Below, piece by piece: positions 3,573 through 49,879 of a stretch of DNA of 64,000 nucleotides; positions within the stretch are counted from its first letter, which is position 1; every line of letters starts with the position of its first letter. The translations under genes were made by a program, and so were the position numbers. Under the pieces are notes generated by a model. The model worked only from the letters and a program-made list of their open reading frames with translations, was not told the origin of the DNA and did not search any database. This DNA is from an uncultured Vicinamibacteraceae bacterium (GTDB lineage Bacteria > Acidobacteriota > Vicinamibacteria > Vicinamibacterales > UBA8438). The DNA lies in the NCBI GenBank assembly GCA_964646815.1, contig CAZYFH010000012.1, positions 16,641-80,640 on the forward strand, written 5' to 3'.

Positions 3573-3636
3573 CGGTTGCTGAGGTATTATCTCGACGGTG
3601 CGCGATCCGCGGGGCACGCTGTCCGGGAGGAAACCG

Positions 3637-4728
3637 ATGCGTAGAGGCGGATTCAGGACGAGCGTGGTTGGCTTGGGCGTTCTCATCGCGGCTGTCGGGG
3701 GGCCGGACGCACAGGAGGTCCAGCCGACTCGCGGATTGCGGGTGTTGGTGACGACGGCGCCCGATCGCGAGCAAGCCCTGTTCAATGCCGACTATGTGTC
3801 GATCGCAAACTCGGAGCTCCCGCTCGAGCCGATCGCACGCAGCGTACTGGCGCACTGCGGGTATGGTCCCGCCGACGGCGGCGGGTCTGTTGCCACGCTC
3901 ACGATTCGCGCGAAGGCCAACACCATCGGCGGTCAGTACAGTGACTGGCTGACGGCCTATACGGGTGCGGACCTTGAAGGAACGCTATCCTTCGTGGCGG
4001 CCGAGGGCGCGACGTTCATCTCCGCTTTCTCAGCGGTCCGGTATCCGACGCTTCTGTATCCGACCACGGCTGGCGCCGGTGTCGATGTGCGGGTACCACG
4101 GGCCGCGACGATCAACCCGGTGCTGCACGGCGACGTCAAGCGCATCCGGTCCGTGTCGGCCGTTGGCTCCCGTCCCCTGCTTGAGGGGAAGGTCTTCGTT
4201 GACGCCCTTCTGGACATCGTCCACGAGGCGTGTGGCACGGCGGGGCTCCGCCGAGCGTCTGACGACGGCGTATCGTCGTTGCGGACCGCGGCCATTCACG
4301 CGCTCGCGTCGCGCTCGGTCGGGGAGCCTGATGCACGCGAGTCGTTGCTCGCGAAACTGAACGACCCTGACCCCGCGGTGCACGGTGCGGTCGCCCAGGC
4401 GCTCTCTGACGCGGATGTGACGGCAGCGGCAGAGCCACTCCGGCGGCATTTAGCCTCCCGGCCACTGCATTACGAAGCGCGGGGATCGATGGAGCGAGCC
4501 ATCGCCCATCTGACCAACACGCCACTCGAGAGCCATGCGTGGCAGTCGCTGGCCCGATGGCACCTGATTGTGTGGGACACGTCGTCGAAGGCCGACGTTC
4601 GCGACCTGCTCGGTGAACCGGAGAGCATTGGGGGCGACGGAGAGTGGCGCTACGGCTCGGGTTGGGTTGCGTTCTCGCGTCCCGAGGATGGCGAGACCGT
4701 CACGCAGATTCGGTATCCGCACTACTAG
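3637..4728 (+). CDS. Secreted protein with HEAT-like repeats and a SmpA/BamE-like C-terminal segment
   Basis: ORF 3598..4728. ATG 3637 is preceded by GGGAGG and gives MRRGGFRTSVVGLGVLIAAVGG. DPDPAVHGAVAQALSDADVTAAAEPLRRHL is HEAT-like. The TAG stop lies inside the CTAG flank of repeat copy 1. Confidence 0.65.
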   Translation: MRRGGFRTSVVGLGVLIAAVGGPDAQEVQPTRGLRVLVTTAPDREQALFNADYVSIANSELPLEPIARSVLAHCGYGPADGGGSVATLTIRAKANTIGGQYSDWLTAYTGADLEGTLSFVAAEGATFISAFSAVRYPTLLYPTTAGAGVDVRVPRAATINPVLHGDVKRIRSVSAVGSRPLLEGKVFVDALLDIVHEACGTAGLRRASDDGVSSLRTAAIHALASRSVGEPDARESLLAKLNDPDPAVHGAVAQALSDADVTAAAEPLRRHLASRPLHYEARGSMERAIAHLTNTPLESHAWQSLARWHLIVWDTSSKADVRDLLGEPESIGGDGEWRYGSGWVAFSRPEDGETVTQIRYPHY

Positions 4729-4874
4729 TGGACTGTAACGGGTGAATCAATAGCGCTCACCAGCGCTGGACCATGTGTCAGCGCGATCACATACGGTGTG
4801 TGTAAGCTCCCTCATCGCGCCTTGCCAGCCGGGCGCCGGTGACTACTACTGATTCACCCGAGACAGGCCACTAG
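4725..4874. mobile_element. MITE-like element, copy 1 (core 4729-4870, flanked by CTAG at 4725-4728 and 4871-4874)
   Basis: Terminal inverted repeats TGGACTGTAACGGGTGAATC and (reverse complement of the right end) TGGCCTGTCTCGGGTGAATC. The core is shared with copies at 15418, 35247 and 48162. No ORF. Confidence 0.7.
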
Positions 4875-5100: not shown

Positions 5101-5450
5101 GTCGGCCACGAGTTATTGGCCGCGGATGTGGGCCGTGAGGGCTCGTCTACCAATATGAAGATACGTCGCGCGACGGCGTCCGGAGTGAAACGCACGAGGT
5201 GGTGGGCAAACTGGCGGAGGTGGGCAAGGTGGTCGTTGCAGGAGAATACGGACTCAGCAGCTCGGAGCGCAACGCGCGCGCCCTCGGCGACCTGGGCTCG
5301 AACACGGTGCGGTTGGCTACGGGAACGGTGGAATGCGGTGAGTGATCCTAGCAGCCTAGGCGGCGGGTGAACGGGGTGGTAAAGTGCCATGCGGGATGTG
5401 TAGGCGTCGCCTAGCAGATGCTTGAGCCTGAACCGAAAGGACGTTCGACG

Positions 5451-12592: not shown

Positions 12593-15064
12593 ATGATGGA
12601 CTGGATGAGAGCCTTGGATGTCGCGGCGGTGGCGCGACGATCGGCCGCCACGCGATGCGCGGTCGCCGCGGTAATGGTTGGCGTGATGATGGCCGGTTCG
12701 CCACCGCTCTCGGCGGCGCAAGGTGAGGGCGCCGTATCCGGCACGGTCGTCGATCCGCTCGGAATGCGATTGCCGGCGACCGTTTCCCTGCTGCAGGACG
12801 AAGAGGCGGTGAGCGAACAGGATACCGATGCGAACGGCGCCTTCCGGTTTGATGGGCTCGCCGCAGGGCGGTACCGAGTCGAAGGCCGCGCGCTGGGGTT
12901 CGCCGTGGCGGTGTCCCCCACGGTTTTCGTTGGTGCCACCTCCGAGGTGCGTGTCGATCTCTCGCTACAGATCGGCCCGATCGAGCAGCACGTCGTCGTC
13001 ACCGCCGCGGCCGTCGATCTCCCGCAGTCACAAAGCGGGTCGCCAGTTACCGTGATCGACCGCGACTTACTCGAGCAGTTCGGTAAGGCCGACGTGCTTG
13101 AGGTGCTGCGTCTGGTCCCCGGCGCGTCCGTGGTACAGACCGGCGCGCGCGGATCGACGACGTCGATCTTCCTCCGCGGTGGCGGCGGCAATTTTAACAA
13201 GGTGCTGATCGATGGCGTGCCCGCCAACGACATCGGTGGTGCGTTTGACTTCGGTGCCTTCGCGATGGCGGGTGTGGAGCAACTGGAGGTGCTGCGTAGC
13301 GCCAACAGCGTAATTTACGGCCCCGATGCGCTGAGTGGTGTGATCAGCCTCACGACCCGGCGCGGCGATACGCGACGACCGGAGCTGACGTACGCAATCG
13401 ACGGCGGTAACCTGGCGACGGTTCGCAACGAGTTGTCGGTGGGCGGGGTCGCCGGCCGGTTTGACTACTTCCTCGATGTGTCGCGGTTCGACACCGACAA
13501 CGATCTGGCGAACAATGAGTATCGGAACGACTCGGTGGCGGGGCGCTTCGGGGTCAGGCTCGCGCGTGCGACCGATCTGAACGCCACCGTTCGGCACACC
13601 AAGGCCGACCTCGGTCTTCCCGGCGCGGTCCTGTTTAACGGAATCACTAACGACTCGTCCCAGTCGAACGACTTGATGTTCCTGAGCGTCAACGCGCGCT
13701 CGCAGGTCACCAATCGTTTGCAGACCAATGTCCAGTTGTCGTCGATGGACAGTGGCTACCGTTTCGTCGACCCTGCGCCCACCGGCAAGCCGTTCGACCC
13801 GTTCGGGTTTGGCGCCCATTTCCTCGGCGACGAGGTGACGGTCGTCGGCGCGAACGGCTACCAGGCCACAGGGCGAGCAATCCTGGATTTCGGCGGAGTC
13901 TACCCGTTGGTATACGAAGCCAACTCGGCGCGGCGGATGGTGTCCGGACAGGCGGACTACTACGTGAACGAGGCCTTCGACGTGTCGGCCGGTGTCCGAC
14001 TCAACCGCGAGGAGGGCGTCGCGGGAACGTCGGCCACGACCGAGCGTACCAACGTCGGCTCGTTCGTCGAGGCTCGCTGGGCCGTCGGGTACCGGCTCCA
14101 CCTCACCGGGGGCGTCGGGTTTGAACACAACGACCTATTTGGCTACGCGACGACGCCACGGCTCTCGGTGGCGTTCTACGCGCGGCCGCCGTCGCCGACG
14201 GCGACCGGGGCGCTTAGCGACACCAAGCTGACCTTCAACGTCGGGCGTGGCATCAAGGCGCCGGGAGTGTTAGACGAACAATCATCCCTATTTGCGCTGC
14301 TGCCCGGCGTGCCCGGGGGGATCGATCCCGGGGACCGGATCGGGCCGGAACGCAGCCGCAACATCGATGTAGGGATCGAGCAAGCGTTGTGGGGCAGGCG
14401 CGCCCGCGTGCGTGTTGCCTATTTTCACAACGAGTTCGACGATCTGATCGAGTTCGTCAGCAAGTTTGCGCTGCCACAACTCGGCGTGCCCACGGAGGTC
14501 GCCGCGGGGGTGCCGTTTGGCGCAACGGTGAACGCGTCGTCGTACCGGGCCCAGGGAATCGAGACGTCGATCGATCTGTCGGTCGGCGACGTGCGGGTGG
14601 CGGCGTCGTACACCTACGTCGACGCGATCGTCACGGAGTCGTTCTCCGGGAGCGCACTCTTTCCCTCTATCAACCCCGCGTTCCCCGACATCGAGATCGG
14701 TCAGTTCTCTCCGCTCGTTGGTGCCCGCCCGTTCCGGCGTCCTGCCCACTCCGGCAGCCTCTTCGCGTCCTACCTCCGTGGGCCCGCGCAGGTGACGCTC
14801 ACCGGGTACTTCGTCGGCAAGTCCGACGACAGCACGTTCCTCTCGGATGCCTTCTTCGGGCCGTCGCTCCTCTTGCCGAACCGGGACCTCATCGCGGGCT
14901 ATCAGAAGGCTGATTTGAGCGGCTCCTATCGCGTCCACCGTCGGCTGCGATGGTACGCCAGCATCGAGAATCTGCTCGACCAGGGTTACACGGCGGCAGC
15001 CGGCTTCCCGGCGTTGCCGCTCACGTTCCGTAGCGGACTTTCGGTAACGCTCGGGGGCGACTAG
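12593..15064 (+). CDS. TonB-dependent receptor with N-terminal carboxypeptidase-regulatory-like domain
   Basis: ATGATG at 12593 with a signal peptide. GTVVDPLG..DANGAFRFDGLAAGRYRV, plug motifs (ANSVIYGPDALSGVISL), and a long beta-barrel. Confidence 0.85.
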   Translation: MMDWMRALDVAAVARRSAATRCAVAAVMVGVMMAGSPPLSAAQGEGAVSGTVVDPLGMRLPATVSLLQDEEAVSEQDTDANGAFRFDGLAAGRYRVEGRALGFAVAVSPTVFVGATSEVRVDLSLQIGPIEQHVVVTAAAVDLPQSQSGSPVTVIDRDLLEQFGKADVLEVLRLVPGASVVQTGARGSTTSIFLRGGGGNFNKVLIDGVPANDIGGAFDFGAFAMAGVEQLEVLRSANSVIYGPDALSGVISLTTRRGDTRRPELTYAIDGGNLATVRNELSVGGVAGRFDYFLDVSRFDTDNDLANNEYRNDSVAGRFGVRLARATDLNATVRHTKADLGLPGAVLFNGITNDSSQSNDLMFLSVNARSQVTNRLQTNVQLSSMDSGYRFVDPAPTGKPFDPFGFGAHFLGDEVTVVGANGYQATGRAILDFGGVYPLVYEANSARRMVSGQADYYVNEAFDVSAGVRLNREEGVAGTSATTERTNVGSFVEARWAVGYRLHLTGGVGFEHNDLFGYATTPRLSVAFYARPPSPTATGALSDTKLTFNVGRGIKAPGVLDEQSSLFALLPGVPGGIDPGDRIGPERSRNIDVGIEQALWGRRARVRVAYFHNEFDDLIEFVSKFALPQLGVPTEVAAGVPFGATVNASSYRAQGIETSIDLSVGDVRVAASYTYVDAIVTESFSGSALFPSINPAFPDIEIGQFSPLVGARPFRRPAHSGSLFASYLRGPAQVTLTGYFVGKSDDSTFLSDAFFGPSLLLPNRDLIAGYQKADLSGSYRVHRRLRWYASIENLLDQGYTAAAGFPALPLTFRSGLSVTLGGD

Positions 15065-15417
15065 TCAGAGAGTCTGCGTCGCCGCTGCTAAGCTGTACTT
15101 GTGTACCACGACGCCACCACCATGCTCCGCGGGTTGGGCGGGGCGATCTTCGCCTCGACGGCCGGGACCTGGCGCGCGGCGGCGGCGCTGACCGCGGCCT
15201 TCCTCGTCGCTGCGCTCTGGTGGTAACCCGGTCCGGCCTGGAACGGCGAGCGCGCCCACAGCGCGCTCCGGGTCACACACAACCCGACGGCGTCGCTGAT
15301 ACCGGCGATACGCCCGTTGGGCGACCGGTTCGCGCTGGTCTGGAACGAGGATGTCCTGGCCGAGCGGGGCGACCACATCAACGGCGGCCGCTCCGAGATC
15401 GTGTTCGCCTTCGTACC

Positions 15418-15584
15418 CTAAGTGGACTGTAACAGCTCTTTGTAGAGTGATTTCCGACCGGGACGCACCGCGTGCCAGCGGTGTTCCTCGGTCACATATA
15501 CGGAACATGCTCCCTCGTCACGTCTTGCCAGCCTGGCGTCACGGCTCGGACCTCACTCCACAACTGGCTGTCACAGTCCACTAG
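15418..15584. mobile_element. MITE-like element, copy 2 (most divergent)
   Basis: Left end CTAAG+TGGACTGTAACAG; right end CTGTCACAGTCCA+CTAG (TIR 12/13). The core shares GGTCACATA..CGG...GCTCCCTCGTCACGTCTTGCCAGCC with copy 1. Confidence 0.6.
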
Positions 15585-15940
15585 CAGCCCGTGGTGAGTC
15601 CCGCATCGCGCCGAGACCGGGATGTGGCCTGCCCCCGCCCTGATAAGGCGCGCGGAGGGAGAATACTCGCCTACTTGACCGACGCGCACCGCCGTCAGGC
15701 GTCATGCAGCGCCGGTCGAGTGCAGCGCGACTTTGACCACGGGCTGCTAGGGCCCCCGATCGCCTTCGACGCCCTCGCGCCCCGGCTGATGATTCTCTTC
15801 TGTGCCAGGCCAGCTCGGACTGCCTGAAGCAGAATTCATGATTTCTTCAGGGATGCGAGGCCGTTCGGTCCAATAGACTCCGTTCCAGGTCGATCGGGTT
15901 CGCACAGGGCGAGACGCAGACTTACGAACAGTGAGGATAC

Positions 15941-18421
15941 ATGCACAGCGGTGGATGGAACCTTGCCAGGGTTCTGCGCAGCACCGTCGTGGGGCTGACG
16001 ATGACGGTGGGCAGTATCGTCGGCTTCCCTGCGGTGGCCTTAGCGCAGGACGGCACAATCACAGGTGTTGTCGTCGCGCGCGCAGAGGGCACTGCGGTGG
16101 CTGAAGCCGTCGTCCTAGTCGACGGAACCTCGCTGGCCGCCGTCGCCAATGCGGTTGGGCGGTTTCGCATCGACGGGGTCCCACCGGGCGGGGTGACACT
16201 CGTCGTCCAGGCTTCCGGTTTTCTCGAGTTGCGTGTCGGCGGCGTTCAGGTACAACCGGGAGGCAATGCCCCGCTGCGGGTCGAGCTAGAGGTCACCCCG
16301 AACTACCTCGAACGCGTGCAGGTGACGGCGAGCCGGGCGCCGCTCAGCGTCGGCGACGTGGCGGCGCAAGCGGACATCATCGACCGCACCACCATCGAAC
16401 AGCGGGGCGACCAGGAGTTGGTGCAGGCAATCGCGCACGTGCCGGGTGTCATCGTGAGTACGCAGGCCGGCTCGTTCCAGTCGGTGACAATGCGCGGTCT
16501 GCCGCGCGACGGCAACGAGTTCACCAGCACGTTGCTGCTCATCGACGGCGTACCGCAGACCGATTCGCGTAACAGCGCGCGTGTCGTCAACCTCCCGATC
16601 AACGACGCGAGCAGCATCGAGGTCCTGCGCGGACCGAACTCATCGCTCTATGGTCGCACCGCCATCGGTGGCTCGATCAACGTGCGGACCGCTGAGCCCA
16701 CGCCCGACCACCAGTTTGGCTTCGACTTCACTACAGGGGGGTTCGACGCGAACGGTAGCGGACTCGATACGGCGAAGGGCGTAGCGCGCGCATCTGGGCC
16801 CATACGCGACTGGGGCGGCTACTATGTGTCGGCGTCGAGCGAGCAAAACTCGAGTTTCTATACCGGGCCATTCGACTTCGATGTCGACCGGACCGCTATG
16901 TTCGCTAAAGTGACCTTCGTTCCCGACGAGCGGTCGCACGGCAGCGTTAGCGTCAACCGAGTGCTCTCCGCGCAAAGCACACCGACCAACGTGCCCATTA
17001 TCGACGGGCGGTTGCTGAGCGACATCGACGCACGGTTCGATCGCCTGACCAATCTCAACGTTCCAGGTCCGAACTACCGTCAGAACGAAGGCCGGATTAC
17101 AGCGAACTACACGCGCGTCCTATCGTCGTGGGCCAGCATTCACGGCATCTTTGGCTATCGTGCGATCCAGTACAAGTTCATCGACGACGGCGACGTGATT
17201 GGTGGCCCGTTCGATCTCGAGGCCACCACGCTGACGATGTATCCGTTCGAGATGCAGACCGATGAGGACATCACGTACTCGGAAGCTCGCATCGAGGTGA
17301 CGCCGGTACTGGGCGAGATGCGCAACACCCTGACGGTGGGGGCTTCATACGAGAAGACCGGCGGGTTTGCCGCCGGCAACCTGATGTACACGGATCCCAA
17401 CACGTTCGGTTGGCCGGTGAACTATCTCAACCCGATACATCCGCCGAAGAGCGAGTGGGAGTTCTTCCGCTTCGGCGGTAACGACTACAACCTCGGGAGC
17501 ACCGGCGTGTTCGCGCAGTACCTGATCGAGCCAGTCAGCCGTCTCATGTTCACCGCCGCCGGGCGATTCGACCGCTTCAACATCGACAACACGCTAACGT
17601 TCGCTCCCACGCCGACGGTGATCGAGGATTCGTTCGACGCGTTCAGCCCGAAACTGAGCGCGATGGTGAAACTGCTCGGCGTCGACGGCGTCGGCCCGAC
17701 GGTCAACGCGTACGCCACCTACTCGCAGGCGTTTCTCCCGCCGCGTCGTGCAAGTCAGCTTCGGCCTGGTAATGAGCTGAACCCGCTGAACCCGGAAGAC
17801 ATCGAGAACTACGAGGTGGGGATGAAGGGCAGCGCCGCCAACGGGCGAGTGACGTTCGAGGGGACGTTCTTCTACATGACGCGCGACGGCATCATTGCCA
17901 GCGTGCGTCAGGGGCCGTTCTTCCTGCCGACGAACTCCGGGGCGCACGAATACAAGGGCTTCGAGACCGGAGTCGGTGTGACGCCCCTCGAAGACAACGG
18001 TTGCTACGGCTCGCTGTCCGTCTACATCAACGCGTCGTTCTACGAGAACCGGTTCGGCGATTTCGTGATCGAGAGCACTGGTGGGGACACCGTGCTGACT
18101 GGTAACCGTCTCCCGATCGCGCCAGACCGCGTCATCAACGCGGGGCTGACCTGGGCCCCTACCGACGCGGTCGATGTCGTGGTCAATGCCAAGCACGTCG
18201 GCGACGTCATGGTCGACCAGGGAAACACGTTCGAGTTCGATCCGTACACGCTGGTCGATCTCGCCGTCTCGTGGCGGACCGGTCCGCTGCGCCTGACGCT
18301 GTCGGCGCACAACGTCTTCGACGAAGAGTACTTCTGGAATGGCGACATCTCGCGCGGCGAATCGGCCGATGTAGGTCCCTCGCGCCAAGTCCTGCTGACG
18401 ACATCGTTCTCATTCAGGTAA
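15941..18421 (+). CDS. TonB-dependent receptor (siderophore-receptor-like) with carboxypeptidase-regulatory-like domain
   Basis: GAGGA upstream of ATG 15941 and a signal peptide. GTITGVVV..AVGRFRIDGVPPG, plug (IEVLRGPNSSLYGRTAIGGSINV), and barrel. Confidence 0.85.
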   Translation: MHSGGWNLARVLRSTVVGLTMTVGSIVGFPAVALAQDGTITGVVVARAEGTAVAEAVVLVDGTSLAAVANAVGRFRIDGVPPGGVTLVVQASGFLELRVGGVQVQPGGNAPLRVELEVTPNYLERVQVTASRAPLSVGDVAAQADIIDRTTIEQRGDQELVQAIAHVPGVIVSTQAGSFQSVTMRGLPRDGNEFTSTLLLIDGVPQTDSRNSARVVNLPINDASSIEVLRGPNSSLYGRTAIGGSINVRTAEPTPDHQFGFDFTTGGFDANGSGLDTAKGVARASGPIRDWGGYYVSASSEQNSSFYTGPFDFDVDRTAMFAKVTFVPDERSHGSVSVNRVLSAQSTPTNVPIIDGRLLSDIDARFDRLTNLNVPGPNYRQNEGRITANYTRVLSSWASIHGIFGYRAIQYKFIDDGDVIGGPFDLEATTLTMYPFEMQTDEDITYSEARIEVTPVLGEMRNTLTVGASYEKTGGFAAGNLMYTDPNTFGWPVNYLNPIHPPKSEWEFFRFGGNDYNLGSTGVFAQYLIEPVSRLMFTAAGRFDRFNIDNTLTFAPTPTVIEDSFDAFSPKLSAMVKLLGVDGVGPTVNAYATYSQAFLPPRRASQLRPGNELNPLNPEDIENYEVGMKGSAANGRVTFEGTFFYMTRDGIIASVRQGPFFLPTNSGAHEYKGFETGVGVTPLEDNGCYGSLSVYINASFYENRFGDFVIESTGGDTVLTGNRLPIAPDRVINAGLTWAPTDAVDVVVNAKHVGDVMVDQGNTFEFDPYTLVDLAVSWRTGPLRLTLSAHNVFDEEYFWNGDISRGESADVGPSRQVLLTTSFSFR

Positions 18422-34296: not shown

Positions 34297-35223
34297 GTGT
34301 TTCACGGCTCGCGACTCGGCGCGTGTGCCGGCGTGGTCGCCGCAGGGTTCGTCGTCCTCGCTGACGGCGCGCCGCGGGCGCAGCCGCGGGAAACCCAGAT
34401 CTTCCGGTCCGGCGTCGACCTGGTACAGGTCACCGCGACCGTCCGGGACGGCGACGGCCGCCTGGTTGGCGATCTCGTGCGCGACGATTTCGAGATTCTC
34501 GAAGACGGACGACCCCAGCCGATCACGCAGTTCGACCGCGGCCGCGTCCCGGTCAGCCTGGGTGTCGTGCTCGATGTCAGCGAGAGCATGTACGGCCGGC
34601 GGATGGAGGACGCGCGATTCGCTCTCCGGCGATTCCTGGTCGATCTCCTCGAGCCGACCGACGAGGCCTTTCTCGTCGTCTTCAACCACGACCCGCGCCT
34701 CGAGGAGCCGTGGACCGCTGGGCCGCACCGGCTGCAGGGACGCCTGGACGACGTGCGCCCGTACGGCGCCACGGCCATCTACGACGCCATGGACATGGCA
34801 CTGCCGTTGTTTGCCTCGCGGTCGCATGCGCGCGCCGCGCTGGTGCTGATCTCGGACGGCTCCGATACGGCCAGCGATGCGACCCCGACTGACGTGCGTC
34901 GCGCAATCCGGCAGTCCGACGCGTTTGTCTACGCGATTGGGATTGACGCCACTGAGCACCGACCCATCAACGACAGCGTGAATCCACGGGTGCTGCGCGA
35001 GATCACCGACGAGAGCGGCGGCTACACCGAGATCATTCACGACAGTCCCGACCTGGCGCCTGCGACCGAGCGGATCGCGGAGGAACTGAATCACCAGTAC
35101 ACGCTCGGCTATACACCGACGCGCGCGCCGGACGGGAGGTATCACCGTATACGCGTGCGTGTCGGTCGGGGCGACTACGACGTGCGGGCACGGCGTGGGT
35201 ATGTCGCGACAACCAATCCGTAG
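34297..35223 (+). CDS. VWA domain protein of the acidobacterial VWFA-related type
   Basis: AAGGA before GTG 34297 and a signal peptide. [44 protein letters not shown], then a VWA core (VLDVSESM.., [10 protein letters not shown]). Confidence 0.8.
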
Positions 35224-35246
35224 GTGACGGCGGCGCCTCTGGGCAG

Positions 35247-35435
35247 CTGGTGGCCCTGTATGGCCTGTCTCGGGTGACTCAAGAGCGCTCACCGGGCGGG
35301 CGACCCCGCGCTGGCCGACGTTGGACCATACGTCAGCGCGGTCACACACGGTGTGTCTGCTTCCTCGTCGCGCCTCGTCAGCCGGGTGGCCGCGCGCCGG
35401 TGACCACGACCGATTCAGCTGATACAGGCCACTAG
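35247..35435. mobile_element. MITE-like element, copy 3
   Basis: Left end CTGG+TGGCCCTGTATGGCCTGTCTCGGGTGACTC; right end GATTCAGCTGATACAGGCCA+CTAG. The core is near-identical to copy 4. It lies between the convergent VWA and PQQ-dehydrogenase genes, and its right CTAG is the dehydrogenase stop codon. Confidence 0.7.
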
Positions 35436-37147
35436 TGGCGGGCCTCCAGTGCGAAGACGTGGAGGCCGTTGCCGGTGCGCGGACGCCGTTTCTCGGGGGT
35501 CAGTTCGGCGGGGAGCATCGTGCCCCAGCTGGCGCCGCCCACGCCGACAGGGATCGCGAGGTACTGCGTGCCATCGACGGCGTACGTGATCGGAAAGCCC
35601 TGTACGGAGTTCGGCAGCCGTGTCTGCCACAGGACCTCGCCGTCAGCCGCGTCGAAGACGAAGACGTTTCTGTCCCAGTCGCCGGCGACGGCGAGCCCCC
35701 CGGCCGTCGTCAACGCCGCGCTGTTGATCGGCGTGCGCGTCCGATGGCGCCAGACGACCTCACCCGTGCGCATGCTCATCGCGACGAACTGGCCCAGCTG
35801 GTCGGGGCTGTCCGGATGCACGTGATTGGTCCGGCGAACCGGCCCCGTGCCCCCACCGCCTTCGACTTTTTCCACAGGACCGAAGACCGCGGTTTCGCAG
35901 TTGAGGATCATCGGGATGTAGAAGATCTCAAGATCCGGGTGATAGGACATGGCGCGCCAGCTCTTGAACCCAGACGTGCTGGGACACCAGAAAATTTCCT
36001 TGCCTAGCTCCGGCACCATGCCGTCGCGGTAGGTGACCGCACCGGTGGCTGGGTCAACGTCTGCAAATGTCTGCAGGCCCATGTCGTACGCATTCCGGAA
36101 TCCTCCGGTGGCGAGGTCGAGCTCCCACAGCACTGCCATCTTTCCCATGCTGAAGACCGAGCGCTGCCCGTCGTAGTCGACGAGGATGCGCTCGAACACC
36201 TCGTCCATGTCGAGCGTTTCGGCCGGGAGGTGCTGGAAGTACCACTTCAACTCGCCTGTGTCGACGTCGAGTGCCAGGGTCGAGTTCGTGTAGAGGGCAT
36301 CGCCGTCGGTTCCGCGCGCCTCCGTCGCCCACGGTTTGGCCTGCGATGTACCGTGAAAGAGTGTCCGTGTGGTCGGGTCGTAACTCCCCGGAATCCACGA
36401 ATCGCTTCCGGCGCGGAACATCACCGGGAGATCTCCCCAGCTGTCTCCACCGCGTTCACCCGGCCGCGCGATCGTCGACGTGCGCCACGCCTCACGACCC
36501 GTGTCGGCGTCGAGCGCCACGATGTAGCAGGTGTCGTCGCGGTATTGACCGCACCCGGTCAACCCCGAGACCACCTTGCCGTCGGCGACGATGGAGCCGC
36601 TGGAGTACTGGAAGCCGGCGCCGCCGCCGACATCGGTATCCCACACGGTCCGTCCGGTTCGGGCATCGAGCGCGATGACATGCGCGTCAACGGTGTTCAG
36701 ATAGATCTTGTCCATATACATCGCGATGTTCCGGTGGATGCCGCCAGGGGGCGGGCCGCCCATGCTGCTGCCTGGCGGCACCGCGCCGCGCCGGTACTCC
36801 CACAGCAGCTCGCCGGTGGCAGCGTCCAGCGCCTGGACTGTTTCGCCGGGGTTTGCCAGATACATCACACCGTCGTGGACGAGCGGCGTCGTCTGCTGCG
36901 AGCCTTGATCCATCGCCCAACTCCAGACCAGCCGGATGGTGTGCGCGTTGTCTGTGGTGATCTGGTCGAGCGGGCTGTGGCCGTGGCCATCCAGCGTGCG
37001 GCGCCAGCTTAGCCAGTCGCCCGGGTCGGGTGTTTCCAGCATGGCGTCTGTCACAGGAGTGACGGTCGCTGCTACCTGGGCACGGCCCGCCGAGGCCACG
37101 AGCAGGCACGCACACAGGAGCGCGACGAGGGAGATGCGGGCGATCAT
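35432..37147 (-). CDS. PQQ-dependent dehydrogenase (quinoprotein alcohol dehydrogenase family)
   Basis: Signal MIARISLVALLCACLLVASAGRAQ. VTDAMLETPDPGDWLSWRRTLDGHGHSPL, and propeller repeats with W-docking motifs. Confidence 0.85.
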   Translation of the reverse strand: MIARISLVALLCACLLVASAGRAQVAATVTPVTDAMLETPDPGDWLSWRRTLDGHGHSPLDQITTDNAHTIRLVWSWAMDQGSQQTTPLVHDGVMYLANPGETVQALDAATGELLWEYRRGAVPPGSSMGGPPPGGIHRNIAMYMDKIYLNTVDAHVIALDARTGRTVWDTDVGGGAGFQYSSGSIVADGKVVSGLTGCGQYRDDTCYIVALDADTGREAWRTSTIARPGERGGDSWGDLPVMFRAGSDSWIPGSYDPTTRTLFHGTSQAKPWATEARGTDGDALYTNSTLALDVDTGELKWYFQHLPAETLDMDEVFERILVDYDGQRSVFSMGKMAVLWELDLATGGFRNAYDMGLQTFADVDPATGAVTYRDGMVPELGKEIFWCPSTSGFKSWRAMSYHPDLEIFYIPMILNCETAVFGPVEKVEGGGGTGPVRRTNHVHPDSPDQLGQFVAMSMRTGEVVWRHRTRTPINSAALTTAGGLAVAGDWDRNVFVFDAADGEVLWQTRLPNSVQGFPITYAVDGTQYLAIPVGVGGASWGTMLPAELTPEKRRPRTGNGLHVFALEARH

Positions 37148-45671: not shown

Positions 45672-45680
45672 AAGACCTCC

Positions 45681-46919
45681 ATGACCACACCATTCTCCCG
45701 TCGGCGTTTCCTGCAGACGGCTGGGGCGAGCGCCGCAGTCTGGGTGCCTGCGTCCGTCAACGGTTACACCACGTCTGAGGTGGCCGCCATGGCGACCGGC
45801 GAGCGCCTCGAGGTCGGGCTGTCGATGTGGGAGCTCGACACGCCCGCGCTCGTGGTCGATCTGGACGCCCTTGAGGGCAACCTTGTCACGATGCAGGAGA
45901 CCGTACGCGCCAACGGCATTGCGAGCCGCCCGCATGCCAAGACGCACAAGTGTCCCGCCATCGCACGGTTGCAGCTCGAGGGCGGAGCGGTCGGGATCTG
46001 CGTGGCAAAGATCAGCGAGGCCGAGGCACTGTTCGAGCATGGCATCGCCGAGCTGTTGATGACGACCAGCAACGTCACGCCCTTCAAGATCCAGCGGGCG
46101 ATGATGCTCCGCAAGTGGTGCGACGGGTTCATCCAGGCGACCGATACGGCCGAGAACGCACGGCAGCTGTCCGACGCGGCACAGGCGGCTGACATCGTGG
46201 CCGATGTGGTCGTCGACGTCGACCCGGGCGGGCACCGGACAGGAATCACGCCCGGGCGACCCGCGCTGATGCTCGCGCAGCTCGTTGATCGGCTGCCGCA
46301 TCTCCGGCTGCGCGGCATGCTCTGTTACGACGGCGGATCGCAACACGTCAAGGGGTTCGACGCGCGGCGGGCCCAGACGCTCGAGCGCCTGGCACCCGCC
46401 GCGGAGACGTTCGAGCTATTCCGCCGGTCGGGGCTGAACACCGATGTCTTCAGTGGCGGAGGCACGGGCACCTACAACATCGACCACGCTACCCCAGGCC
46501 TCACCGACGTCCAGGTTGGCAGTTACGTCTTCATGGATGCGCAATATTTGGCCATCGGAGGCGCCCAGGACGCCGAGCGATTCTCTGACTTTCAGCCGGC
46601 GCTGACGATTCTCACGACCGTCCTCAACGCGCAGTACGCGGGACGGGCCACCACGGACGCGGGTGCCAAGGCCTGCACGATCAATCGCCCGTGGGCGATC
46701 GTCAAAGGCGAGTCGGGGATGAGCTACACGTCGGGCTCCGATGAGTTTGGGTCGATCCGCTACGACAACCCGAGCCGAACCTACGCGGTCGGCGACAAAC
46801 TCGAGCTGATCGTGTCGCACTGCGATCCGGTCGTGAACCTCTACGACCAGATGTACGCCGTGCGCAACGGGCAGGTCGAGGCGGTCTGGAGCATCGCCGC
46901 ACGCGGCAGGTCGACCTAG
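45681..46919 (+). CDS. DSD1/D-threonine-aldolase-family PLP enzyme with a twin-arginine signal
   Basis: MTTPFSRRRFLQTAGASAAVWV Tat motif. DTPALVVDLDALEGNL..SRPHAKTHKCPAIARLQ..GICVAKISEAE (alanine-racemase-N fold). Confidence 0.8.
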   Translation: MTTPFSRRRFLQTAGASAAVWVPASVNGYTTSEVAAMATGERLEVGLSMWELDTPALVVDLDALEGNLVTMQETVRANGIASRPHAKTHKCPAIARLQLEGGAVGICVAKISEAEALFEHGIAELLMTTSNVTPFKIQRAMMLRKWCDGFIQATDTAENARQLSDAAQAADIVADVVVDVDPGGHRTGITPGRPALMLAQLVDRLPHLRLRGMLCYDGGSQHVKGFDARRAQTLERLAPAAETFELFRRSGLNTDVFSGGGTGTYNIDHATPGLTDVQVGSYVFMDAQYLAIGGAQDAERFSDFQPALTILTTVLNAQYAGRATTDAGAKACTINRPWAIVKGESGMSYTSGSDEFGSIRYDNPSRTYAVGDKLELIVSHCDPVVNLYDQMYAVRNGQVEAVWSIAARGRST

Positions 46920-47112
46920 CCACTAGTTGGACGGGTCTTCGCCCGGAAGCGCCGGCGTTCCGTGGGGACCCCCACCAGCCCATGGGGTGCGTCCGCGTCG
47001 AATACAGCGGCGCGCATCCCATCGGCTGGCAGCCTCACTCCGCGCGCGCGAGGCGCGCCGTGCGCGCCCTGGCCGTTTGCGCGTCAGTGGGACTGCGATC
47101 GGGTCGGGTATA

Positions 47113-47509: not shown

Positions 47510-48046
47510 TCAGGCGAGGGTCACCAGCGGTCGTCCCGGCTGAACCAGCTCACCGTCGCGACACGAAACACTCGTCACGCGCGCGTCGTGTGGCGCGCGC
47601 ACCGCGAGCTCCATTTTCATCGCCTCGAGTCGCACCAGCGTGTCGCCTTTGCTGACCGTGTCGCCCGTCTGTACCAGCACTTTGGTGACCGTCGCGGGCA
47701 TCGGTGCGGAGAGCGGATCGTCATCGGGGACGCGCGGCCCGACGGGTCTGGCAACGGCCGACCGCTCGACTTCCAGCGCGCGACCGGCGACCATCGCCAA
47801 GCACCCGCGCGCACCATCCATGACCAGGTGGACGAGGTGCCGCGAGCCGTCGGCAGTGACCAGGAACGTGGACGCATCGATGACGGTGATCTCGACCGCG
47901 ACGGGCCGGCCATCGACCTCGACGGCGTCATCGGAGACGACGCGCGCCAGAGAGCTCGACGATCCAGCGTGCACGAGGAGGTCGATGGGGGTCGGCATCG
48001 CTAGTAGCGCGTGGTGAAGTCCCACTGCATTCGACCGCCGATGCAT
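47510..48046 (-). CDS. Stand-alone BT/BCCP (biotinyl carrier) portion of methylcrotonyl-CoA carboxylase alpha
   Basis: C-terminal biotinyl domain PMPATVTKVLVQTGDTVSKGDTLVRLEAMKMELAVRAP. Alternative start at ATG 47998. Separated from the BC ORF by repeat copy 4. Confidence 0.75.
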   Translation of the reverse strand: MHRRSNAVGLHHALLAMPTPIDLLVHAGSSSSLARVVSDDAVEVDGRPVAVEITVIDASTFLVTADGSRHLVHLVMDGARGCLAMVAGRALEVERSAVARPVGPRVPDDDPLSAPMPATVTKVLVQTGDTVSKGDTLVRLEAMKMELAVRAPHDARVTSVSCRDGELVQPGRPLVTLA

Positions 48047-48161: not shown

Positions 48162-48347
48162 CTTGTCGCCTGTCTCTGGTGGATGAATAGCGCTCACCGG
48201 GTGGGGCATCCCGCGCTGGCCGGCGCTGGATCATGCGTCAGCGCGGTTACAGACAGTGTATCTGCTTCCTCGTCGCGCCTTATCAGCCGGGCGCCGCGCG
48301 CCGGTGGCCACTACCGATTCACCCGACACAGGTCACTCGTGCACTAG
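48162..48347. mobile_element. MITE-like element, copy 4, inside the MCC alpha coding region
   Basis: The core AGCGCTCACCGGG..CGCGCTGGCC..GCGTCAGCGCGGTTACAGACAGTGTATCTGCTTCCTCGTCGCGCCTTATCAGCCGGGCGCCGCGCGCCGGTGGCCAC closely matches copy 3. The right end is ..GGGTGAATC-type TIR plus CTAG (48344-48347). The left end is degraded (CTTG+TCGCCTGT). Confidence 0.65.
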
Positions 48348-48349
48348 GG

Positions 48350-49879
48350 TTAGAGGCGCCAGTCGTTCAGGCGGCCCCACGGATCGGTCGCTCGGGGGTA
48401 TCCGCCGGCACCCGTGGCGCGCGCCGGCTGGCCGTTCCGGAGGGCACGCCCAGCGGCAGCAGCCACTGCGGCGACGACGGCGTCGCCCGTCCGAGCGTCT
48501 TGCAGCGCATCACGCTCGTCGTCCACGAACCCGATGTCGATCGCGCCGCGCTCGAATCTCGGATGCGCGAGCACGCGACCCAGAAACGATAAATTGCTCC
48601 GTACGCCGAGCACGACGTAGCGACGCAGCGCCGCCATCGCACGTTGACGGGCGACTTCGCGCGTCTCCCCGTAGACGGCGAGCTTCGCGAGCAGCGGATC
48701 GTAGTGAACCGGGATGGCGCTTCCCGTGCTGACGCCGGCGTCGACGCGCACGCCTGGTCCGGTTGGTTCACGGTAGAGCGCCAGGTGGCCGGCGTCCGGG
48801 CTGAAGTCGCGCGCAGGGTCTTCCGCGTACAGCCGGCATTCGATCGCGTGCCCGCGCGCAGTGATGCCACCCTGGGTCCACGGGACGCCGGCGCCACTCG
48901 CGATCTCGAGCTGGGCTCGGACGAGGTCGACGCCTGTGACGAGTTCCGTGATGGGATGCTCGACCTGTAGGCGGGTATTCATCTCAAGGAAATAGAACCG
49001 TGCATCGTCTCCGCTTCCCTCGAGCAGGAACTCGACCGTGCCGACGTTGTCATACTCCGCCGCCCGTGCCACACTGATCGCTGCCGCCGTCAGCTGGTTG
49101 CGGGTCGACGCCGTTAGTGCGATGGAGGGTGTTTCTTCGACCACCTTCTGGTGGCGCCGCTGCACGGAACAGTCGCGCTCCCCGAGGTGGACGAGCCGTC
49201 CATGCCGATCGCCGGCGATCTGGACCTCGATGTGTCGAGGTCGTTCTAGTAGCCGCTCGACGTAGAGCGTGCCGTCGCCAAATGCCGCGTTCGCCTCGCG
49301 ACGGGCCGCCTCGGATGCGGTGGCCACCTCTTGCTCGTGGCGCACAATCCGCATCCCCTTACCGCCACCGCCCGCTGATGGCTTCAGTACCGCCGGATAC
49401 CCGATCGCCCGGACGATAGCCTCGATGCCGGTGAGCGTCTGGTCTGCCGGTTCGCCGCCGGGCACGACAGGGACGCCAGCTGTCGTGGCAGTTCGCCGAG
49501 CCTCGATCTTGGAGCCAAACCGGGCAATGACCGCGGGCGACGGACCGACGAACGTCAGGCCCGCATCGACACAGGCCGCGGCGAACGCTGCGTTCTCAGC
49601 GAGGAAGCCGTAGCCGGGATGAATGGCGTCCGCCCTGCTCGAGCGGGCTGCGTCGATGAGCCGTGTCATCGACAGGTAGCTCTCCGCGGCCGGCGCCGGT
49701 CCGATCGCGAGCGCACGCGAGGCCTCCGCGACGTGGCGGGCGTTGCGATCCGCGTCGGAGTAGACCGCGACGGTCTCGACGCCGAGTAGCTCGCAGGTGC
49801 GAATGATGCGGACGGCGATCTCGCCACGGTCAGCAATCAGCAGACGCTTGATCGAAGGTCCCTCCGACTGTGGTTCCAC
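48350..49879 (-). CDS. mccA: Biotin carboxylase portion of methylcrotonyl-CoA carboxylase alpha (BC plus start of BT domain)
   Basis: GTG 49879 is preceded by GGAG. KRLLIADRGEIAVRIIRT, GGGGKGMRIV and EMNTRLQVEHPITE. Ends ..DPWGRLNDWRL* (509 aa), directly next to repeat copy 4. Confidence 0.85.
   Translation of the reverse strand: MEPQSEGPSIKRLLIADRGEIAVRIIRTCELLGVETVAVYSDADRNARHVAEASRALAIGPAPAAESYLSMTRLIDAARSSRADAIHPGYGFLAENAAFAAACVDAGLTFVGPSPAVIARFGSKIEARRTATTAGVPVVPGGEPADQTLTGIEAIVRAIGYPAVLKPSAGGGGKGMRIVRHEQEVATASEAARREANAAFGDGTLYVERLLERPRHIEVQIAGDRHGRLVHLGERDCSVQRRHQKVVEETPSIALTASTRNQLTAAAISVARAAEYDNVGTVEFLLEGSGDDARFYFLEMNTRLQVEHPITELVTGVDLVRAQLEIASGAGVPWTQGGITARGHAIECRLYAEDPARDFSPDAGHLALYREPTGPGVRVDAGVSTGSAIPVHYDPLLAKLAVYGETREVARQRAMAALRRYVVLGVRSNLSFLGRVLAHPRFERGAIDIGFVDDERDALQDARTGDAVVAAVAAAAGRALRNGQPARATGAGGYPRATDPWGRLNDWRL

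Follow-up and report, generated by a model that had tools for sequence, protein, structure and literature searches.

A CTAG-duplicating miniature element of Acidobacteriota whose flanks often coincide with stop codons

The 64,000-nucleotide stretch of contig CAZYFH010000012.1 analyzed here (assembly GCA_964646815.1 of an uncultured Vicinamibacteraceae bacterium, positions 16,641 to 80,640; hereafter the window) has a G+C content of 66% and contains several copies of a small repeat, one of which lies at positions 35251-35431 and is followed directly by a CTAG that is also the stop of a gene for a pyrroloquinoline quinone (PQQ) dehydrogenase. Why should the flanks of a repeat double as the stop codons of its neighbours? 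We consider it likely that the repeat is a miniature inverted-repeat transposable element (MITE) moved by an IS5/IS1182-like transposase, that CTAG is the target sequence duplicated upon insertion and that the overlap with stops arises from the availability of sites together with selection. The family was gathered with an internal 25-nt pattern, which was found in at least 115 DNA stretches of a species-genome collection; the titles of the matches listed are nearly all those of Acidobacteriota metagenome-assembled genomes (MAGs), mainly of Vicinamibacterales and Bryobacterales. A profile built from these matches yielded 143 copies of 105-180 bp, with differing neighbours, in the 115 listed loci and the window. 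Small, non-coding, multi-copy and located at unrelated sites, the repeat is a non-autonomous MITE. Its family is common among Vicinamibacterales and Bryobacterales MAGs of the Acidobacteriota, the window being from a relative in a marine metagenome. The family is undescribed but of a known kind; CTAG duplication of the IS5 type is already established.

The flanks reveal how the element is inserted. For class A, one of at least five classes of copies with unrelated terminal arms and a core common to all (Table 1), 94 candidate copies obtained by fuzzy matching were later filtered to 76 good ones, to which five copies of other classes, including window copies 1 and 2, were added, giving 81 copies with defined ends (162 ends). 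Outside the class-A element, [C/G]AGCCCGTGG...CCACGGGCT[G/C], the flank consensus is C-T-A-G on both sides, each base being found in 55-81% of the copies, and the composition is back to background more than 4 nt from the element. CTAG is present on both sides of 24 of the 81 copies, and another nine have identical 4-mers other than CTAG on the two sides (GTAG twice, and TTAG, ATAG, CTAC, CTAT, TGAA, TAAA and CCAG once each), where 0.86 such pairs are expected and none of 5000 shuffles reaches nine. An element of the IS630/Tc1-mariner type, which the earlier note on this DNA had put forward beside an IS5-group element, would also target CTAG, but would duplicate TA only, while its own terminal G...C would complete the TAG and CTA at the junctions. 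TA-only duplication with fixed element ends cannot yield the nine identical pairs; in those of GTAG (twice), TTAG, ATAG, CTAC and CTAT, supposed element bases would be copying the outer base of the target. The flanks are a 4-bp direct target duplication that prefers CTAG, of the IS5 type rather than the IS630 type, and the direct repeats cover all four positions. Models with a 3-bp or 5-bp duplication were also tried for class A and fit few copies (L004, L009), not the family.

An autonomous partner insertion sequence (IS) is also at odds with IS630. At L101:1613-3078, an IS of ~1466 bp with class-A termini (~16 nt) and CTAG on both sides encodes a 456-aa protein that matches the Pfam domains DUF772 and DDE_Tnp_1, both above their cut-offs. 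Its NCBIfam matches are to IS1182, IS5 and ISNCY models only, with no IS630 model among them; the scores for IS1182 (155 bits, cut-off 270) and IS5_4 (84 bits, cut-off 140) both fall short of the curated cut-offs. Both Pfam domains place the predicted protein in this transposase superfamily, as an IS5/IS1182-like member. The same class-A termini, CTAG flanks and a DUF772 plus DDE_Tnp_1 protein are found at L122-L128, and a relative, P0153, is present in five independent insertions, all with CTAG on both sides, two of which are directly followed by a MITE copy that shares the CTAG. All seven full-length IS insertions inspected have CTAG on either side. The transposase protein family is very abundant, and its best 120 homologs are all at least 80% identical, too close to give a view of relatives with other termini. 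Class B, to which window copies 1-4 belong, would have been moved by a related transposase, as suggested by its shared core and the same flanks. Small elements with class-A or class-C termini and quite different insides occur at L004:4370-4630, L079:7604-7860 and L037:3158-3195, one of them a hairpin of ~34 nt that is barely more than two termini. The same transposases seem to move several unrelated passengers.

The coincidence of these duplications with stop codons is real. A coding-like open reading frame (ORF) runs up to the junction at 37 of the 162 ends, and 28 of the 37 stop exactly at the junction TAG, compared with two of 37 in the other two frames; 26 of the 81 copies (32%) lie exactly on a stop codon. 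Separate crude gene calls give 82 ends that face the 3' end of a gene. Of these, 26 form a spike at distance 0, 8 are 1-30 nt away, 13 are 31-100 nt away and 35 lie at greater distances; the 5' end of a gene is faced by a further 68 ends. Judged from the window itself, the overlaps might pass for coincidence among few copies, as stops are found at just two of five copies (three of ten flanks) and two of the four cases described in the earlier note, copies 2 and 4, fail. Against the junction frames and the spike at distance 0 in the whole family, such a coincidence is scarcely credible. On the one side of the element 20 junction stops were counted, and 8 on the other.

How much of this pattern follows from where CTAG is available? 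The tetranucleotide is about 5-fold depleted in 924 kb (505 observed versus 2854 expected), and in the window 59 are observed, where base composition predicts 201 and a second-order model 77. When the CTAGs associated with recognised copies are set aside, 357 remain; 68 of them serve as stops, 84 are within coding sequence and 205 are located elsewhere, so that stops make up 19% overall and 25% outside coding sequence; the expectation that in such a genome CTAG occurs mostly at stops was overstated. The 32% occupancy of stops by the element is at most slightly above this availability (p = 0.09 when compared with 25%, p = 0.004 when compared with 19%). The stop-codon pattern is largely explained by site availability, given the depletion of CTAG and the 19-25% of CTAGs that are stops. 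Target choice and the loss of intragenic insertions largely suffice, without any special attraction to stops, and the distribution would be shaped by selection, with no need for stop codons to be actively preferred. Among the crudely called genes of loci L001-L115 and the window, TGA is used 386 times, TAG 307 times and TAA 56 times; TAG thus makes up 41% of the called stops, a large share for a G+C-rich bacterium that adds to the supply of C-TAG targets, a C preceding 37% of the TAG stops.

Loci without the element show what a target looked like before insertion. At copy 1, the left CTAG (4725-4728) holds the TAG that ends ORF 3598/3637..4728(+), and the right CTAG (4871-4874) supplies the minus-strand stop for the frame of an AhpD-like remnant (...VDLKDFMPPGDGQRRG / ...DFMPPGDGQRRG). 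The syntenic orthologs P0121, P0122 and P0123 of the gene on the left, which have the same neighbours and 80-84% identity, terminate at the same residue of the alignment, their element-free loci reading CGT TAC TGA, CGT CAC TAA and CGT CAC TAG, followed by a variable spacer and then by the conserved block GGCGGCATGAAGTCC that is also found downstream of copy 1 in the window. One of the three is an unoccupied C-TAG stop (CAC-TAG), and when copy 1 is taken out of the window sequence together with one of its CTAGs, the result is ...CAC TAC TAG ccgcg.... Because the element-free orthologs end at the same codon, the stop at copy 1 is native and was regenerated. In the restored sequence, a single CTAG is predicted to have ended both convergent genes before the insertion, and its duplication to have given each gene its own. 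A second difference in presence and absence is seen between the genes for a 204-aa protein and a HEAT-repeat protein, where a decayed class-A copy lies at L119:1284-1444 and L120:~20-180; neither the window (3573-3636) nor L118 has it.

The notion of a CTAG-targeting transposon that is steered onto C-TAG stops and regenerates them through target duplication, proposed when only the letters of the window had been read, is thus borne out by the flank statistics, the empty orthologous sites and the matching autonomous IS, and the identical non-CTAG 4-mers and the DUF772/DDE_Tnp_1 transposase favour the IS5-group version of it. Several observations nevertheless weigh against the account. A search of the window and the fetched loci turned up no transposase with termini of class B, C or D. 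The outer flank base is more variable than the inner one (on the left NTAG 16 versus CTAN 4, on the right CTAN 9 versus NTAG 6), an asymmetry not expected if a plain 4-bp duplication were later altered by random mutation. Ten non-CTAG pairs of the NTAG/CTAN form fit an element G...C plus TA, whereas a 4-bp-only model needs later mutation to produce them. These ten pairs, the smaller variation of the inner bases (left G, right C) and the TA as the best-conserved part of the flanks are what an IS630-type element would leave behind; weighed together with the nine identical pairs, the domains of the partner transposase and the CTAG pairs of its insertions, that origin appears very unlikely. The flanks of class D resemble CTTAG/CTAAG (L053:24-183(-), L106, L085), as does the left side of window copy 2, and these pentamers hint at a duplication of 5 bp in some relatives. 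Coding ORFs in the fetched loci were called by a crude GC-frame rule and not by a gene finder. Finally, the homologs of the dehydrogenase at copy 3 (at most 79% identity) mostly end two to three residues earlier, with ...FALP(D) compared with ...FALEARH in the window. The exact dehydrogenase protein is found on four contigs, and marine-metagenome contigs with it also carry copy 3, both of the places shown keeping the 209-nt gap; as there is no empty site, the argument that the stop at copy 3 is native is drawn from the logic of the duplication only.

The element also folds into a long hairpin of -93.9 kcal/mol (z = -2.8), in which pairing is kept by compensatory change: 87.8% of the cells are paired compared with 34-45% in slid controls, and double changes number 160 compared with 25-74. 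The host might accordingly retain the hairpin at gene ends as a terminator or a stabiliser of mRNA 3' ends, the overlap of CTAG and stop being secondary, as the earlier note had suggested by way of alternative. Besides the strong and maintained fold, convergent contexts outnumber divergent ones (27 versus 13), and for copies located between co-directional genes an antisense core (35 cases) is favoured over a sense one (18 cases; p = 0.027). However, the scan for terminators and promoters at copy 3 (35100-35600) returned 0 sites, with no T-tract or terminator-like site, and no T-run follows the window copies; 68 of the 150 neighbouring gene ends are 5' ends; and copy 4 separates a biotin carboxylase gene from a biotin-carrier gene of the same strand, so that a terminator there would have polar effects. 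Private (singleton) mutations in 48 class-A copies are evenly distributed, with no preference for termini, arms or core (chi-square p = 0.88), and wobble-type mismatches in the core helices have no clear strand bias (44 versus 71, plus 131 other mismatches); G-U wobbles in the arms number 151 versus 200 by strand. Nowhere in the window did an Rfam 15 family reach its gathering score, and permissive thresholds gave only noise (E >= 0.5). Retention as a hairpin would also leave the exact 4-bp duplications and the empty sites unaccounted for, and we regard it as unlikely. The orientation bias between co-directional genes could reflect an insertion bias or early selection.

Under the transposition account that we prefer, a DDE transposase of the IS5/IS1182 group would act in trans on the MITE and make staggered cuts at the 4-bp palindrome CTAG (loosely NTAN), which would be duplicated to leave CTAG...CTAG brackets. 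CTAG reads as TAG on both strands, it is depleted in genomes with 66% G+C, and a fifth to a quarter of the copy-unassociated CTAGs consist of a C and a TAG stop; with selection purging the insertions inside genes, about one third of the surviving copies would end up exactly on a stop. The duplication would leave an intact CTAG beside each neighbouring gene, and the stop would be kept even where two convergent genes share one CTAG, as at copy 1. Each insertion would also make a second CTAG target, by which clusters of copies would be favoured. Copies 2 and 5 share the CTAG at 15581-15584, which indicates that one insertion used a CTAG that an earlier one had produced by duplication, and single CTAGs shared by adjoining copies are also found in several fetched loci. 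A MITE copy and a full-length IS share one CTAG in L122 and in L126 (around 1797-1800), and shared CTAGs occur at the right flanks in L092, L087 and L001 as well, with the same or different arm classes adjoining.

In all five arm classes the middle of the element is a common core of ~90 nt, in which two direct repeats, GCGTTGCTCCTCGGTC and GCTCCCTCGTCGCGCC, flank a hairpin with a 4-bp stem; all four pairs of this stem covary (ATAT, AAAT, AGAC, ATGC, AGCC, AGGC, GTAT and other variants occur with matching partners), and a further covarying stem closes the whole. The conservation of the core partly reflects the search, as the 25-nt pattern lies within it, but the left half, unused in the search, is equally conserved. 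The partner IS is without the core, and other MITEs with class-A termini have different insides. The even spread of private mutations implies that the copies decay as if neutral, and, taken together with the absence of the core from the IS and the occurrence of class-A termini around other insides, it points to selection on active source elements and not on each insertion. It is possible, if doubtful, that the core is a cis-acting module under element-level selection and not a filler; it may be a structured RNA or single-stranded DNA motif, or a site for a host factor, that boosts mobilisation or persistence. The core was also inspected by eye as a sigma-70 or sigma-54 promoter, an IHF site or a small ORF, and these readings were rejected: the candidate -10 lies in the covarying hairpin and is unconserved, and the varying length of the hairpin breaks the frame.

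The ends of the element are terminal inverted repeats, CAGCCCGTGG...CCACGGGCTG in class A and TGGCCTGTC...GACAGGCCA in class B, with 11-14 of the 14 terminal nucleotides complementary. A scan of viral contigs with the core pattern gave no matches, and a metagenome scan with a class-B arm pattern gave four, all of them chance matches inside unrelated DNA. The short copies of class E (L006:85-190, L111:4619-4723 and L046:2623-2727; ~106 nt) have CTAG directly at their left end; at the end of the right inverted repeat there is no CTAG, and 14-46 nt separate this end from a CTAG or CTAC that lies beyond a variable tail rich in pyrimidines.

The window holds five copies of 142-181 bp, not four, as found by blastn with copies 1 and 3 and then by a profile search (Table 1). 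The overlap of their flanks with stop codons, as originally described for four copies, stands for both flanks of copy 1 and for the right flank of copy 3, the CTAG of which is the stop of the 571-aa PQQ-domain dehydrogenase. It does not stand as written for copies 2 and 4. The TAA in the CTAAG beside copy 2 is present, but the frame that it closes is merely 34 aa long, and the real upstream gene ends at 15064. The CTAG near copy 4 is indeed in frame, one codon past the TAA of the biotin carboxylase gene, but it is not a flank of the element, the true flanks being CTTG and CTCG by alignment of the copies. Likewise, the comparison with orthologous loci that lack the element supports a native stop for copy 1, while copy 3 has the shorter homologs described above. 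Positions 35251-35260 of copy 3 are a 10-nt duplication of the element terminus, and the DNA next to copies 2, 4 and 5 has no repeats elsewhere in the window or the fetched loci.

Table 1. Copies of the element, their flanks and associated features in the window, candidate excision footprints, and terminal sequences of the arm classes
Feature	Coordinates	Strand	Remarks
Copy 1, left CTAG duplication	4725..4728	.	TAG 4726-4728 is the stop of HEAT_2-repeat gene 3637..4728(+); orthologs end at the same codon
Copy 1, MITE, arm class B	4729..4870	+	ends TGGACTGTAAC...GACAGGCCA; short variant without part of the left inner stem
Copy 1, right CTAG duplication	4871..4874	.	minus-strand stop for the last frame of the AhpD-like (CMD-family) remnant, a pseudogene
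CTAG pair CTAGcagcCTAG	5348..5359	.	candidate class-A excision footprint (terminus CAGC...)
Copy 2, left flank CTAAG	15418..15422	.	degenerate or 5-bp flank; its TAA closes 34-aa ORF 15317..15421 only
Copy 2, class B	15423..15580	+	divergent arms
CTAG common to copies 2 and 5	15581..15584	.	right flank of copy 2, flank of copy 5
Copy 5, arm class A	15585..15746	-	CAGCCCGTGG...CCACGGGCTG; core on the minus strand; orientation opposite to copy 2
Copy 5, other flank, CTAG	15747..15750	.	
VWA-domain gene	34297..35223	+	convergent with the PQQ dehydrogenase; TAG 35221-35223, 23 nt before the left flank of copy 3
Copy 3, left duplication CTGG	35247..35250	.	degenerate; single A-to-G change from CTAG
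Copy 3, class B	35251..35431	+	conserved core matched at 35309-35388
Copy 3, right CTAG duplication	35432..35435	.	CTA 35432-35434 is the TAG stop of PQQ dehydrogenase 35432..37147(-)
CTAG pair CTAGccaCTAG	46916..46926	.	at the stop of gene 45672..46919(+); candidate class-B excision footprint (duplication + terminal CCA + duplication)
Copy 4, left flank CTTG	48162..48165	.	degenerate
Copy 4, class B	48166..48335	+	between biotin carboxylase gene 48350..49879(-) and biotin-carrier-domain gene 47510..48046(-)
Copy 4, right flank CTCG	48336..48339	.	degenerate
CTAG outside copy 4	48344..48347	.	4 nt beyond the right flank; on the minus strand in frame after the gene's TAA (TAA CCC TAG)
Further close CTAG pairs	L023:5128-5145, L092:4620-4639, L067:423-436, L037:6730-6737		candidate excision footprints
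Arm class A			terminal sequence CAGCCCGTGGCAAAAG...
Arm class B (window type)			terminal sequence TGGCCTGTCTCGGG...
Arm class C			terminal sequence TGTCCCG...
Arm class D			terminal sequence TGGCCCCGGTC...
Arm class E (short form)			terminal sequence GTTTCCTG...

Pairs of CTAG with a spacer of 0-12 nt are also more frequent than expected (19 observed versus 3.6 expected in 924 kb). Their spacers resemble element termini, as in CTAGccaCTAG, CTAGcagcCTAG, CTAGtgtcCTAG and CTAGgttttcCTAG.

The gene convergent with the HEAT-repeat gene at copy 1 encodes an AhpD-like protein of the CMD family in other loci (L118:2593-3172(-), L119 and L121), and its remnant in the window extends from 4871 to ~5300(-). 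The remnant is a pseudogene, in which a Tyr codon has become TAA, a premature stop, and 7 nt are deleted. Three of its orthologs read ...SRENHCHY-TGA-IEAHAADL..., with an in-frame TGA at the position of the second Cys of CxxC, and an ortholog in which U was replaced by C matches Pfam CMD. By this reading of their codons, the orthologs probably encode a selenocysteine (CxxU) protein.

Among known systems, IS5 of Escherichia coli generates a 4-bp target duplication with the consensus Py-T-A-Pu, most often CTAG (PMC5493358). The element described here shares with IS5 and its MITEs a DDE transposase with DUF772 and DDE_Tnp_1, the 4-bp duplication and short non-coding derivatives that carry the termini of the IS. 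It differs in that the partner transposase, 456 aa in length, matches the IS1182 model best and yet stays below the curated cut-off, in that the terminal sequences are unrelated, and in that the MITE has a conserved core of ~90 nt that the IS does not have. IS630 of Shigella and the MITEs derived from such elements, e.g., the pneumococcal RUP, likewise prefer CTAG or TA and include small palindromic intergenic derivatives, but they duplicate TA only and depend on a different transposase family, whereas the duplication here is 4 bp and the predicted transposase IS5/IS1182-like. Correia/NEMIS of Neisseria, ERIC/IRU of enterobacteria and MIRU of mycobacteria are imperfect palindromes of ~100-200 bp that are co-transcribed with genes, and some copies supply or overlap stop codons. 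The present element resembles them in the size of the palindrome and the overlap with gene ends and has no sequence relation to them and no Rfam match; in contrast to theirs, its overlap with stops is a direct consequence of the target, a 4-bp palindrome that is a stop on both strands. REP/BIME are GTAG-tagged palindromes of 20-40 bp (GTAG/CGTC head) without target duplication that are associated with a Y1 (RAYT) transposase. They too are high-copy extragenic palindromes with a conserved terminal tetranucleotide, while the element here has 140-180 bp, 4-bp duplications and a DDE-type IS as its partner.

For the annotation of Acidobacteriota genomes, the 140-180 bp that follow many TAG stops are transposon DNA, ORFs that run into the element are artefacts and CTAGs in tandem close to the ends of genes may be scars left by excision. 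As the mechanism of duplication is established, the advance in this respect is modest, and it is the conserved core that may be worth experiments. For the evolution of these genomes, the element illustrates how a target motif, the depletion of that motif and purifying selection can together place a mobile element on stop codons while leaving the genes unharmed.

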